A stretch of DNA of 63,158 nucleotides, filler included, from Hausera hauseri (GCA_046269625.1; 11 parts of 11 records of this genome joined end to end with filler, not necessarily neighbours in it); one strand, 5' to 3'; positions 14,848 through 45,097 are shown, numbered from the whole stretch's first letter. The notes: a model not told the origin generated them from the letters alone. Program-made: numbers and translations.

Positions 14848-17800
14848 ATGAAAAATAATCAACTGTTTGTTGAGAACTGCTCCCCGAAAAATAAATATAA
14901 AAATAAAGATTTAGAAAATTGGTTATCTTTACAAAGAAATAAAGTACCGTATCAACAAAATATTCTATTGGATTATAATAAATTATGTTCAAAAGAAAGA
15001 GATTGCTGGATAAATGACCGCTATTTAAAATTTAGGATAGATAAGGTCATCGAATACATCACCCTTTATAAAGGAAATGCCGTAGAAAATCTTAACGACA
15101 TTCATGAAGTGATTACTCTTTTCAAAGCAAACAAATTACAAATTGATGATAATCAAACAGTCATAAGAAAACCACATAGAAAAATTACCCGAGGTAGGAA
15201 AAAAGAAAACGGGCAAAAATTACAGAATAATAATCCAAATGACATGGAAATTGGAGATCTGAAAGAAATTGAAACTATAATAGATGATGTTATAAGTTGT
15301 AGTGATAGGTATAATAAAGAAAAGAAAAATGAGAAGGAAGAAGAGAAGACAACAAAAACCGTAAAACGAGAATTGAAACAAATTATTGTTAAAATAAACC
15401 AAAATTCACAAATTGTTATCGAGGTTGGAAAGATAAAAACTATCGCCATGTTGCTAAGGGAGATAGTAGCGAGACATCACATAAAGATAAAGAGCCACAT
15501 GATCATTTACAATGGTAAAAACTGGAAAAGCGAAGATATTATAGAAGAGATCCCTCACGGAGCAACAATCAACGTCATTTGCGGATTGAAAGGTGGGAGT
15601 TCTAACGAGAGTGAAGAATTCGAAAATCGATTACTGGCCAAGGATGAATTAAGATGTGAATTGACAGTCCAAAGAAAATCGCTCATAAACAGTCGATTAA
15701 CGGAGGACGAATTCCAATATCAAAGTAATAGATACGATGAACTTTTTAAGAAATTATCCATGGAGATCAGTACGTTGAAATTAGTTGCCAGAAAATTGAA
15801 AAGAAGAGAAGAATTAGCGGAATTAATCGATGAATCAAAGAACATCGAGATGCAAAATGAAGAAATAATAAGGATGATTCAAGCAAAAAATTTTAGAGTT
15901 TTAGAAGACAAATTAGATATAAAAGCTCAGAATAATTATTTAGCACCTAAGTTAAAAAGGGTGGAACTTCCAAAATTCGGGGGTAATGTTGCCGAATTTG
16001 AAAAATGGCGACAGATATTTAGAACGTGTGTGGATAATACTTCACTTTCCAGCATAGACAAACAGATTCAACTAGAGAACTGTTTATACGGTGAGGCGAA
16101 AAGACTAATTCAAAGCTATGATCTTTCTGAAAACTCTTATAAAGCGGCACTCGAAAAGTTGGAACGTTATTACGGAGGGAATCAGAGAAACTATGCTTCC
16201 CTCATGTCGGAAATTATGGAGTTTCCAAAAATCGGCGTACACAATATTAAAGATTTAGATGCCTTTGCTACATTATTAGATTCAGTCATTGTGAGATTAA
16301 AACATCTAGACCGAGAAATAGAGTTAGAAGGCGGATTGTTATACCAAAATTTAATCCAAAAACTACCTGAGATAATGGTATTGACATGGGAGAGGTATCG
16401 AGAAGATAAAGATAAGAAACGTAATGTACAAGAATTAAAAATATGGGTGGAAAAAGAGGCTGAATTGAAACGGATCGCTGCCGAAGGTGTTCACGGAATA
16501 AATGTTCTAATGCCAAATAAAATCAGAAATCCAGAACGACAAGTTAAAGGTTCATTCTTCACAAATAAAAAGCAAGGTATAGAAAAGTTAACGTACAAGA
16601 TTGGGAATGATGTTGAAAATAAGAGAAATGAAGAAAATAATAATCATTGGAATAAAAATAGAAGATTGTTAAATACTTGTAAATATTTTTTAAACGGTAA
16701 TTGCAAATTTGGTGATTCATGCAAGTTTAGTCATGAAATAAAGGATCCAAACAGTAATACGAATGTAAATCAAAAATATTGTGTTTATTTTCTAAATGGA
16801 AACTGTAAATATGGAAAAGGTTGCCGATTCAAACATGTAAATCCTTCAAANNNNNNNNNNNNNNNNNNNNNNNNNNNNNNNNNNNNNNNNNNNNNNNNNN
16901 NNNNNNNNNNNNNNNNNNNNNNNNNNNNNNNNNNNNNNNNNNNNNNNNNNAAATATTGTGTTTATTTTCTAAATGGAAACTGTAAATATGGAAAAGGTTG
17001 CCGATTCAAACATGTAAATCCTTCAAAAATATCAAAACGAGATAACAATTATTCAAAAAAATTCGATAAAAAAGTAGATATAAAAAATTTATCTGAAGCT
17101 CTCATTAAAGTTGACAATACAAAATCAGAACTAAATGATAACTCTTGTCAAACGTATAGTGATGGCTATTCAGAGAAACATTCGTATATGACGAACATGA
17201 AAAAAGAAAGGTCTAAAGGATCAGATAAAATAGCTCTAAGGACCGTCTCAGTGTATCTGATTAGTAGAAAAAAGAAGATCAAAGTGAACATGTTACTAGA
17301 CGATGCCAGCACGGACAGTTTTCTTGAAGAAGACATTGTCCAATCGTTAGAACTAAGTGGAAAAGTAGAAGATGTTACGGTGGCAGTAGTGGGAGGAACA
17401 CAAAAAAGACAAAAGGTGACCAGAGTTTGCATGACCTTACAAAGTTTAGATGGTAACGTTTGTGAGAAATTTGACGCGTTATCCATGAGAAGACCAACAG
17501 GGTCCATGAAAGCTATTAATTGGGCGGTAAAAAAAAGACAATGGCCATACTTACGAGACATTGAATTTGTGGGAACAGGACAAGGAGAACGTGTAGACGG
17601 AATTATAGGAGCCAATTACATACACCTCCACAAATCTATAAGGGAAGTCTCAGGAAAACGAGGAGAACCAGTGGCTCGACTGACTCCTCTTGGATGGACT
17701 TGTGTCGGAATCCTAAACGAAGGAGAAGATAATTTAATACGAAACAGTCTGGTAAGAACGTATTGGACGAGAGTTGATGAAGTAAATGAAGATATAAAAA

Positions 17801-42174: not shown

Positions 42175-45097
42175 TTTGGCTTTGGAAAGGCCAAGATTTC
42201 CACAGTTTTCAGACCTTCACGAAGGCGATCAAATTGGTTTACTAGATCGGGCGTCCAATGGATTAATTGTCTTTTCGTCCCGGATGAGAGGTGTGCGAAG
42301 GGTGCCGTTAGTTTGGAGCAGTATGACACGTATTTGTGTATTAAATACAATGCCCCTAGACAACTCCTCATATCGGTAGTAGTAATTGGCAACGTCACAT
42401 TTTTTAATTGTTGTAAGCGATCAGGCTGGGGCAAATGCCCTTCGAGAGTAATTATGTGGCCTAAGAAGTTGACGCGTTTCTGGAAGAAATTGCATTTGAC
42501 GAAATTAATTTGCAGGTTGCTTTGATGCAATCTGTGGAAGATAATTCTAAGGTGCTGATGATGTTTTTTGATGGAGCTGAAAGCGACTAATATGTCATCT
42601 ATGTATTGCTGAGCAAAATCAAGACCAGAAAGAACGGTGTCAATGTGGCGCTGATAGGTCTGGTATGCACTACGTAGGCCAAAAGGCATGAAGATGTATT
42701 TATGAAGACCAAATGACGTGATGACAGAAGTTTTTGGAATGTCATCAGGGGCAACAGTAATTTGATAGTAGGCTTTGTGCAATAGGTATTGGTGTTGTTG
42801 AGGCTATGAAAAATATCTTTAATGAGTGGCAGTGGATAGGCATCTGTAATAGTTAGATTGTTTAATTGTCGATAGTCGCCACATGGCCTATAGGTACCAT
42901 TTTTCTTTACCACTACATGAAGAGAAGCCCACGGTGAATTCGATCTCCGAATGATGCCAGACATTTCCAGTTTATTAAATTCCTGTTCCACAGTTTTACG
43001 TCGGCGTGGCGACAAAGGTCTGACCTTTTGTTTGATGGGCCTCTGATGCTCTGTTACTATGTGACAATAAGTTGTTGATGGAGGCTTGAAGTTGACGTCC
43101 CTTTTAACTATGCGAAAGCAAGACGTGACGTATGATTTAAGATTGGAGTCTAGAGACAAGAATGAATGAGGTATATCATTAGAGAGAACAGCTCCAGTGA
43201 TTGACGAAAAGCAACTGGTATCGCTACTATCGGTGCCTAATTTGGATTTTTGTTTTAGAATAGATTTATAATTGTCGTTCATAACTGAAATATTACCGAC
43301 TTTGTCGGAAGTTTTTTTTATAGTTGACGAAGCATTCAACATGTTCACAGATAAATGCAACGAATTGCTCGCTAAGTTGTCTACGAGACATGTTTGGAGT
43401 TCCAATCGAGTTCCTGCTTAAAAGACAGCTGTATTTGAAATCGGCCAATAGATCATATGCGGCAAGAAAATTTGAGCCTATTAGGGGAGGTTTAATGTTG
43501 GCCACGTGAAACTTCCAGACAAACTTATCTGGCAAGTTGGCGAAAGTGAAAGTCTGTTCCGTGGTTCCTGTAATATCCAACGGTTGACCACTGGCAGTGA
43601 AAAGCGGTGGACAGGAAATCGTAGTCGATGTAGGAACGAAGGACAAGTGAAAGAGCGAAAAGGCAGCTCCTGAGTCTATAAAGAAGTCAATATGTGAAGT
43701 ATCTCTGCATAACAGTACAACTTTCAACAGAAAGACTGCAGAGGCGGTGTTGAAACGGCTTGAAGATTGAGCGATATTGCCTGTGCCAGAATGTGCCTTA
43801 AAATCTGGCGGCATTATTAGTTTTTGAAGGTTTTGGAGAAAAGGAAGAAGAGGAAGAAAAGCGAGGAGATTTATCGTTGTAATGTTTACAACCAGGCACG
43901 CATGATCTAACCTGTGACTGGAAATTATTATGGTAGACACAAATAGGGTTGTCCACAGCGTACCGTTCGCTGTAGAACCGACAACCCAAAAAGCACTTCC
44001 TAGTATCCCTTCGAAATCGCATGTGATAGAAACAAGTCATGCGTCCGCCAGGTGAAATGGATCAGGCAGTGTCTGGAAATGCTTCTCTCCATTGAAGGTC
44101 TGGTTTCACTTCGTCGAGGCCCATTAAGATTATTGAGTTGGGTAGTAATGGCCGAAATTGACTGCTGTAACTTTTCAAACTGTTGCTGCATCATTTGCAA
44201 TTGTTCAGTAAAAATGTTGTGTCTGTAGTTGGAGCACAAGTGGTTGCAGCCGCAATAGGAAGAGAACTGTTGGTATGAAGAATCTCAAAGGATTTGTCAG
44301 CCATTATTGCCAGTTTTTCCATAGCAGTGGACTCGTCGACAACGGTAAGTAAAGCTCTGTTTGAGGTGGGCAAATACGATGAGAAATAACGGCGAATTAA
44401 ATCCGCGTTATTCGTAGGTGTCACTCCTAGCGCGCTGAGCCTCATAATGGCCGTTTGGAGAAAGTCGGATGGCTTTTGGCTTCCTATCGTGTGGTCATTA
44501 AAGTACTTTTGTATTATATTGTCAATCGAAGGATCCGTGATATGCAGTACAGCTTCACAGAGTGTCTCGTAAGGTGTCGAGGATTGTAGCAGCTCGGAGA
44601 TATTATTAATCTGCTGCTTGACGTTGGCAGGGAGAATTAAGAGGCTATTGGCTCGCACAAAAGAATCAGTAATGTTGTTCGATTTTAGCCACTGTTGGTG
44701 GAATTGGAGCCATGGTTTGCTGGAGTTGTTTCTGTCGAAGAAAAGTTCCACACAAGGTAAATTTAATGACCCGCGTGACTGTTGGGAATGTGGCAAACGA
44801 TAGACGTTGTGTATTTGTGGATTTATCATCCGAGAAGGATGGGTTTGAGTCCGATCCACCCCGAAGTCGAAAATGGAGCACCAGGTGAATGATGGGACGT
44901 TCATGGCATGTGAAAAGCAAAAGGGAGTCGGAAGGATGTATTATAAGTTCTTGATATGTGAAATAGAAATCAGAAGTGTTATATGATGAGGACAAAGCGT
45001 TATGTAAGAACTGTGATGTCTTGTTGAGTAGAGCTTTTAAGGTTGTAATGTGTTTATTGTAGCTAAAGACCAGGAAAGATAAATGTAATGAGGTCAT
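42175..45097 (-). mobile_element. Decayed CsRN1-like Ty3/Gypsy element: ubiquitin-like domain - Gag - protease - RT (truncated by contig end)
   Basis: Gag KLP..PYETL..IGSQKPSDFL..LP..LAIMADK; two C-x2-H-x9-C-x3-C motifs; protease [38 protein letters not shown]. Several frameshifts. Confidence 0.93.
44855..45097 (-). other. Ubiquitin-like domain upstream of the Gypsy Gag
   Basis: 81 aa from ATG 45097: SFLVFSY..ITTLKA..TSQFLHNAL..DFYFTYQ..HPSDSL..IIHLVLHFRLRGG. Compare the ubiquitin tail LHLVLRLRGG. Confidence 0.8.

Follow-up and report, generated by a model that had tools for sequence, protein, structure and literature searches.

We analysed a window of 63,158 nucleotides from the Hausera hauseri assembly GCA_046269625.1, in which 11 draft contigs are joined by N-spacers, and found ubiquitin-derived sequence ahead of Gag in two long terminal repeat (LTR) retrotransposons. 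A BEL/Pao element encodes what is, judging from its sequence and those of its relatives, a real, divergent ubiquitin-like domain (UBL) within its gag-pol frame. A Ty3/gypsy element on another contig has a ubiquitin tail upstream of its Gag. We think it somewhat probable that the BEL/Pao domain is a spacer before Gag that host deubiquitinases (DUBs) can cleave, and that the Gypsy element would use the same trick with a separately acquired tail; as an observation, the BEL half is solid and the Gypsy half suggestive.

A ubiquitin-like domain precedes Gag in a BEL/Pao lineage

The BEL/Pao element lies on contig 14759-23327 and shows the following features:

14848..21033 (+), gag-pol, one open frame of about 2060 codons (open reading frame list; Pfam DUF1759, Peptidase_A17, RVT_1, rve and DUF5641)
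14848..15369 (+), coding leader, 174 amino acids before the UBL, of no known family
15376..15597 (+), UBL ending in LKGG, with a putative cut before the Ser at 15598
15598..15951 (+), acidic start and helical N-terminal part of Gag (about 118 amino acids)
15952..16410 (+), capsid region (DUF1759 at 15976-16410)
16678..17027 (+), CCCH zinc fingers at the nucleocapsid position, two of them ahead of the scaffold gap
16851-16950, scaffold gap of 100 N inside the gag-pol frame
17293..21030 (+), protease (LLDDAS), reverse transcriptase (YMDD at 18523), RNase H (at 19048), integrase and DUF5641
21727..21750 (+), polypurine tract then TG, recognised by eye, where the 3' LTR probably begins

The UBL ends in LKGG followed by SSNESEEF (LKGG and Ser at 15586-15600, + strand). 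The direct signs of a ubiquitin fold are weak, though they agree with one another, and the relatives are decisive. Against Pfam ubiquitin the domain scored 15.8 bits (E=0.012), under the 25.4 cut-off; five of six PDB matches were ubiquitin-fold chains at E 0.6-1, and the ESM Atlas search assigned it at 0.92 to a ubiquitin/SUMO-like cluster. Its single-sequence model (predicted local distance difference test score, pLDDT, 61) showed the order strand-helix-strand-strand-strand. Foldseek listed ubiquitin, NEDD8 and SUMO2 as the top rows for this model (E 0.017-0.12, none at E<=0.001), and VIA-align gave Z of only 4-6, with ribosomal proteins tying with ubiquitin. Stripped of its last 12 residues, the domain still outscored 1000 of 1000 shuffles against four ubiquitin references (z=5.0), and a profile of the relatives' UBLs ranked it first among 1156 six-frame segments (E=0.016).

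Relatives were sought with UBL plus Gag as the query among 1.84 billion representatives. Among the best 150 proteins, seven distant relatives carry a UBL at the same place (P0002, P0003, P0010, P0011, P0025, P0053 and P0080). The BEL UBL was confirmed because relatives have ubiquitin above the Pfam cut-off at this position, joined to DUF1759 in one open reading frame (P0003, P0010, P0011, P0025 and P0080); P0002 and P0053 begin within the UBL and both retain LKGG. At least 110 residues precede the capsid in 78 of the 150 best matches, and [LIVMF]xGG occurs there in 14 of the 78, six times in a cluster 115-124 residues before the capsid and eight times scattered from 43 to 278. A Pox_I1 match on the window UBL (E=7e-4, below cut-off) was overruled by the positional homologues, and a chance motif was rejected for BEL.

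Identity to a viral ubiquitin, L114, ranges from 61/76 in P0003 to 20/74 in the window. P0003 retains L8, R42, I44, K48, K63, R72 and R74. The window UBL retains I44, G47, K48, L73 and the terminal Gly-Gly, whereas R42, R72, L8 and H68, which are among the residues with functional roles in ubiquitin, are lost; this fits selection acting on the fold and a cut site more than on signalling. The tail is the conserved part of the domain: in the eight UBL-bearing members, L73 is kept in 8/8, G75 in 7/8 and G76 in 8/8, whereas only 4 of 110 linker columns, and 21 of 145 in the capsid, are as conserved. Capsid identities among these members are 21-43% (57% for the window and P0002), and some UBL pairs stand far above their capsids (66% vs 37%). 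The helical N-terminal part of Gag can also be aligned in the UBL-less Gag P0043.

In a capsid-only tree, all eight UBL-bearing members fall on one side of a branch with 98% support in the Shimodaira-Hasegawa-like approximate likelihood ratio test (SH-aLRT), together with four rows too short to be judged, while 35 of the 36 UBL-less Gags with at least 200 residues upstream sit on the other side. The pattern would fit one capture in one BEL lineage; uneven UBL rates allow for re-capture.

A preliminary description of this DNA had proposed that the two elements captured UBLs independently, directly before Gag, and kept a cleavage motif followed by Ser, which might serve maturation of Gag by a host protease. 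For BEL the proposal is supported in part: the domain is in frame with Gag, and because the Gly-Gly is retained, across diverged capsids, while the linker diverges, host-protease maturation is a good inference. Ser after Gly-Gly is weak as a convergent feature. It occupies this place (P1') in five of the eight BEL members, with G, M and N in the rest, and in 4 of 28 distinct viral ubiquitin fusions, which were selected for D/E at the next position. An N-terminal position was rejected for both domains, which are internal. In the window BEL copy 174 codons separate the first ATG from the UBL, and the leader frame has no stop in 280 codons (27 and 34 in the other two frames); across the BEL members the UBLs lie behind 75-200 or more open codons. 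The window's leader, of 174 residues or more, had no match in PDB, PHROG or Pfam. Beyond what the preliminary description had noted, leaders contain host-gene fragments: in P0010 an HSP90 fragment lies ahead of the ubiquitin (E=1e-11), and the Gypsy leader contains a piece of CRM1.

A single gag-pol frame, the order protease, reverse transcriptase, RNase H and integrase, and Pao-specific domains (DUF1759, E=1e-17; Peptidase_A17, E=1e-50) place the element in BEL/Pao. Its Gag ends in Cys-His fingers, as in that group, here of CCCH type; most BEL Gags have another Cys-His spacing. CCCH fingers have been reported for Saci-2 (PMC2582038). They are common to the window element and P0002, and P0011 and P0025 have other spacings by eye. 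An exact 77-nt repeat of the finger region after the scaffold gap may be an assembly duplicate. The reading frame is open back to the start of the contig, which begins 89 nt before the first ATG and leaves the 5' LTR outside.

A ubiquitin tail lies upstream of a Gypsy Gag

The Gypsy element was found on contig 42175-48178, with the following features:

42175..43820 (-), protease (DSG at about 43676) and reverse transcriptase (RVT_1, E=6.7e-18), broken; the contig ends inside pol
43800..44763 (-), CsRn1-like Gag, frameshift-broken, with two CX2HX9CX3C motifs at 44034-43888 (relatives P0151 and P0152)
44764..44854 (-), Ser and polar linker; frame broken between tail and Gag (three-frame translation)
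44855..45097 (-), UBL candidate, with tail HLVL..RLRGG and a body unrecognisable as ubiquitin
45098..46498 (-), decayed leader frame, continuous with the RLRGG tail
45701..45952 (-), exportin-1 (CRM1) fragment within the leader frame, corresponding to residues 612-695 of the top PDB chain (E=4e-5)
46696..48132 (-), Nup205 fragment, intronless, with many stops, human residues 351-830 (PDB E=1.4e-24; Pfam Nup192 E=3.8e-26)

The ubiquitin tail is real and far beyond chance. RLRGG is followed by SDSNPSFSDD (RLRGG and Ser at 44869-44852, - strand) and preceded by HLVL, which together give the last nine residues of ubiquitin with a two-residue insertion. HLVL.{0,3}RLRGG occurs once in the window and in none of 100 Markov-sampled windows, and RLRGG alone once against 0.08 expected; L[KR]GG by itself is nothing unusual (3 in the window, 1.53 expected). 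Both motifs of the preliminary description are thus present. As a whole UBL, the Gypsy segment was not confirmed: only its tail is demonstrable. The segment had no match in Pfam, PDB or ESM Atlas, scored 0.9 bits (E=30) against the profile of the BEL relatives' UBLs, and reached a probability of 2.7% in hhalign, over the tail only. Fold searches with its single-sequence model (pLDDT 58; one helix then three strands) listed no UBL; these tests rest on one decayed copy and a low-confidence model, and a non-match is no proof of another fold. As had been stated, the two UBL segments share little identity, with no BLASTP alignment between them. A derivation of the Gypsy tail from the window BEL copy was rejected, since the tail resembles ubiquitin more than it does the UBL of that copy.

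The leader frame has 3 stops in 548 codons, compared with 34 and 42 in the other frames. One contig of run X1 bridges the CRM1 stretch and differs there by 456 nt net, which hints weakly at an insert. The Nup205 fragment lies on the same strand upstream of the leader and is a candidate part of the element. The two pieces, both of nuclear-transport genes, stand in tandem on one strand upstream of the Gypsy Gag, and each is covered by several differing X1 contigs. The tail region is represented by many contigs in runs X1 and X2; copies vary, and because some contigs run across from the tail into the Gag side, the junction belongs to repeated DNA and is no one-off chimera. The window copy is decayed and differs at some sites from all X1 and X2 contigs compared. 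A primer-binding-site look-up in 44900-46800 gave three TGG candidates, none convincing for tRNA-Trp, and the LTR was not delimited.

The CX2HX9CX3C (CHCC) Gag signature is reported to define the CsRn1 clade (PMC2582038), and the Gypsy Gag contains two copies. The Gag is 65-70% identical to P0151 and P0152, both of which have the signature and both of which lack the Gag N-terminus; they were the only two proteins that the Gag search found. P0152 is an apparent chimera, probably a misassembly, of a bacterial DUF5777 beta-barrel N-terminus and the C-terminal half of a Gypsy Gag. Protease and reverse transcriptase are seen on the Gypsy contig, and reverse transcriptase and RNase H on a related contig (52497-57075), with the integrase recognised by eye only (GPY motif). 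The latter contig is a second CsRn1-like Gypsy (- strand, 64% DNA identity over the reverse transcriptase), truncated within Gag, with a long Ser/Thr/Pro-rich tail after the GPY motif.

Word-index searches found neither the Gypsy tail frame among proteins of 341-2000 amino acids nor the BEL UBL plus linker among proteins of 1133-3607, and scans of loci by Gag alignment gave no confirmed relative in viral or metagenome contigs. A pattern made up of a ubiquitin tail and x-D/E after it picked up 109 viral and 76 metagenome loci. None of these had a tblastn match at E<=1e-3 to the window Gag and Pol queries, and so they gave no independent Gypsy case; Pfam, applied to eight of the 76 metagenome loci, showed no retroelement domain in them. 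The viral loci (L001-L109) show that large DNA viruses join near-canonical ubiquitin-GG to many unrelated proteins, with 28 distinct downstream starts of at least 50 residues (one of 805), so that a ubiquitin leader is a widespread viral habit. Another locus, L160:1164-7760 (+), has an open frame of 2199 amino acids with ankyrin repeats, a weak IBR match and two internal ubiquitin domains, the first of which ends in LRLRGG followed by M.

The BEL and Gypsy elements probably belong to one organism. Sampled words of the BEL 5' part were found at 0.80 in run X1 and 0.26 in run X2, with no RNA dataset among those listed for these words, and the Gypsy contig is covered by both runs; because X1 and X2 contain both elements, the two co-occur in two datasets, of which X1 may derive from the source sample. 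The observed/expected CpG ratio is 1.03 for the BEL contig and 0.94 for the Gypsy contig, without depletion, and 0.26 for contig 9221-14658. The assembly thus looks mixed, though the BEL and Gypsy contigs are alike in this respect.

A predicted host-cleavable spacer and its alternatives

The mechanism that we propose starts from the ubiquitin-derived domain that stands in the gag-pol frame of a BEL/Pao lineage between a variable leader and Gag. Host DUBs would likely cut after Gly-Gly and give Gag a defined N-terminus other than Met, whatever lies upstream. The UBL would probably be a cleavable spacer, by which captured pieces of host mRNA could be tolerated in frame without spoiling capsid assembly. 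Template switching onto host mRNA would be the source of the ubiquitin as well as of the leaders. The Gypsy element would probably play the same trick with a separately acquired tail; what is observed there is the tail and a host-fragment leader. The BEL architecture with its conservation, the tail motif and the leaders with their host fragments are observed; capture from host mRNA, the cleavage, the enzyme and the benefit are what we infer, and a convergence of two lineages is possible.

Several known cases support the individual steps. Like a DUB-cleaved fusion precursor, the window BEL element has an LxGG tail in frame with Gag and a P1' residue, Ser, other than Pro, and its G-L-x-G-G ending recurs in a natural UBL-S27a chain in PDB. 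Host hydrolases are reported to cut ubiquitin inserted into a pestivirus polyprotein (PMC8310069), where the inserts have independent origins (PMC13517609); USP5 cuts a UBL less than 20% identical to ubiquitin (PMC13572447); and template switching lets LTR elements take up host mRNA, in many cases in frame (PMC5131818).

A number of points weigh against this reading. At the place of ubiquitin residue 72 the window BEL UBL carries Gly, and the loss of R72 could impair USP5-type cleavage; R73 of SDE2, equivalent by offset to position 72, is reported to be required for USP5 cleavage (PMC13572447). P0080, perhaps a decayed copy, has EG in place of GG. The relatives come from gene calls on ENA/JGI contigs of 1.2-4.4 kb, so that their N-termini and element context are provisional, and the query contained the UBL and so favoured UBL-bearing matches. 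The capsid tree was a quick one (148 of 151 rows kept by a 125-column coverage rule, midpoint-rooted, without the approximately unbiased test), and the long-branch, UBL-less P0012 falls on its UBL side. A host fragment was recognisable in one of the four BEL leaders long enough to judge, and the window's has none. On the Gypsy side, the segment without its last 12 residues scores against shuffles at background (z=0.06), the tail frame differs from the Gag frame in the window copy, and no relative with a UBL was found in the protein, viral-contig and metagenome-contig scans. Release of Gag by a host protease at Gly-Gly is itself a prediction from sequence.

The Gypsy points lend themselves to the main rival explanation, which accepts the BEL reading but takes the Gypsy motif for no more than a small stretch of ubiquitin mRNA. 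It would be part of a mosaic made by template switching (Nup205, CRM1 and ubiquitin tail), passively amplified and decaying, with no functional convergence. The body that scores like shuffles and the leader made of host fragments with stops would be expected of such debris, and capture mediated by LTRs is reported to be common (PMC5131818). Summed depth in run X1, which is no copy number, drops from 3,000-20,000 in gag-pol to 2,131 in the tail and 1,004 in the body (35-265 further upstream), in keeping with a minority of copies or with fast divergence. Yet the tail closes a frame of about 550 codons some 30 codons before Gag, where a cut site would be useful, and its last nine residues all match ubiquitin, compared with 18/71 overall. 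Uniform decay of a whole domain is unlikely (P about 3e-5 at a 25% background, post hoc), while capture of the tail only is still compatible. We regard this rival as rather unlikely. If instead the UBL mainly set Gag dosage or folding, it would act as it does in ubiquitin-ribosomal and SDE2-type precursors: co-translational cleavage would expose a chosen N-terminal residue, and the leader would be incidental. Seven of the eight BEL members have Ser, Gly or Met at P1', with acidic residues after it; such N-termini are stable under the N-end rule and prone to acetylation. The viral fusions of ubiquitin to many unrelated proteins point the same way, as does the turnover of SDE2, which is reported to be set by such cleavage (PMC13572447). 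The initiator Met alone would, however, give the same Ser or Gly N-terminus without a UBL, and the internal position of the domain behind its open codons speaks against this explanation, which we consider improbable.

It is still less probable that the product of interest is the released leader-UBL-GG, which would be charged by E1 or bind ubiquitin readers and so disturb silencing or nuclear export in the host. This would suit the near-canonical P0003 with its key residues, the UBL pairs better conserved than their capsids and the two nuclear-transport pieces on the Gypsy contig, and the ubiquitin-related cargo of the planarian element Burro has been interpreted similarly (PMC6431247). Recent re-capture may, however, explain the high identity, the Nup205 piece is riddled with stops and the Gypsy body is unrecognisable. 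An interfering mimic had also been raised in the preliminary description; because R42, R72, L8 and H68 are lost, a cut site is favoured over a mimic in the window BEL copy, and relatives such as P0003 are still candidates. That the UBL stays attached, as a Gag scaffold or a proteasome-targeting domain with the Gly-Gly a relic, seems very improbable. G75 is absent from P0080, and integral UBLs are known in retroelements, Burro among them (PMC6431247). Against this, the Gly-Gly matches core capsid residues in its degree of conservation, whereas it is usually lost from integral UBLs.

Beyond the spacer reading itself, a bolder version, which we hold to be unlikely, would make the ubiquitin tail a release linker adopted independently in two lineages and the 5' gag frame a cargo bay for host-mRNA fragments (exportin-1, HSP90 and perhaps Nup205). 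DUBs would then split the product into clean Gag and a cargo-UBL-GG, which could be conjugated in near-canonical lineages.

Other features of the window

Contig 9221-14658 differs from the other contigs: it is CpG-depleted, with a CA microsatellite and a non-LTR reverse transcriptase-like end, presumably from an element of that type, which suggests vertebrate DNA within the mixed assembly. A decayed Maverick/Polinton-like piece at 57176-60787 (-) encodes a type-B DNA polymerase (Pfam DNA_pol_B_2), and a stretch adjoining the BEL 3' end (about 22200-23300, +), also decayed and Maverick/Polinton-like, resembles a packaging ATPase by eye. At 1464-3478 (-) and 3826-4146, a RING-finger open reading frame and a Gln-rich one adjoin tandem repeats of about 37-40 nt and look virus- or element-like. 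A long inverted repeat (arms of 145 and 177 nt) is found at 35624-36706 and 37337-38394 with a decayed tandem array of 105-106-nt units, which encodes HEEDDLNHLQHP-like units. Host genes are represented by a glyoxalase-II-like metallo-beta-lactamase fragment (26385-26837, +) and a leucine-rich-repeat protein (28017-28856, -).

Discussion

The closest likeness is to cytopathic pestiviruses (bovine viral diarrhoea virus), in which a host ubiquitin or UBL stands in frame in the polyprotein before a core protein, there NS3 (PMC8310069, PMC13517609). As described there, host hydrolases make the downstream N-terminus, and acquisition is repeated, often with host or mosaic sequence in front. Those inserts are recent and near-identical and belong to an RNA virus, whereas the BEL insert precedes Gag, has become fixed in a retrotransposon lineage of some age and now shows 27-80% identity, with cleavage predicted. 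The giant planarian Ty3/gypsy element Burro likewise has a Ubi2/SUMO-like domain among captured host-like domains of an LTR polyprotein (PMC6431247). There the domain follows Gag, between MATH and BCL-2, and the sections of its description that treat it ascribe to it neither a di-glycine nor a cleavage role (PMC6431247); the window BEL domain precedes Gag and keeps the Gly-Gly. LTR-mediated retroposition also yields intronless sense-strand host fragments, combined from several genes, in or beside an LTR element; retrocopies are reported to interrupt the element there (PMC5131818), whereas here the leader frame runs through the ubiquitin tail towards Gag.

Cellular UBL-fusion precursors differ in that the UBL is N-terminal and the genes are those of the host; here it is internal and part of a selfish element. 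In FUBI-eS30, a divergent UBL with a di-glycine is reportedly removed by a host DUB. SDE2 is described as having a divergent UBL with a conserved di-glycine that a host DUB likewise removes (PMC13572447). The two elements otherwise resemble BEL/Pao (Belpaoviridae) and CsRn1-clade Ty3/gypsy (Metaviridae) in domain sets and order, including the CHCC Gag of the Gypsy element (PMC2582038), and differ from the usual members in the extra leader with a UBL or tail before Gag and in the CCCH fingers of the BEL Gag.

Searches of the full-text literature gave no account of BEL/Pao or Gypsy elements with a ubiquitin-GG unit ahead of Gag; Repbase, Dfam, GyDB and supplementary tables of transposable elements lay outside this search and could list such units. 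In the usual view, the protease that matures the proteins of an LTR element is the element's own. Extra domains are reported to become fixed only rarely in such elements, in a text whose relevant parts mention no ubiquitin unit (PMC9289625). If the proposed mechanism is true for this BEL lineage, which has kept its ubiquitin while the capsids drifted to about 30% identity, host DUBs would be part of retrotransposon replication and a possible control point, and the spacer would explain how captured host sequence can be carried in frame with Gag without poisoning assembly. The BEL lineage would then have maintained over a long time what is short-lived in pestiviruses, and the trick would have arisen at least twice in retrotransposons, provided that the Gypsy case is borne out as well.

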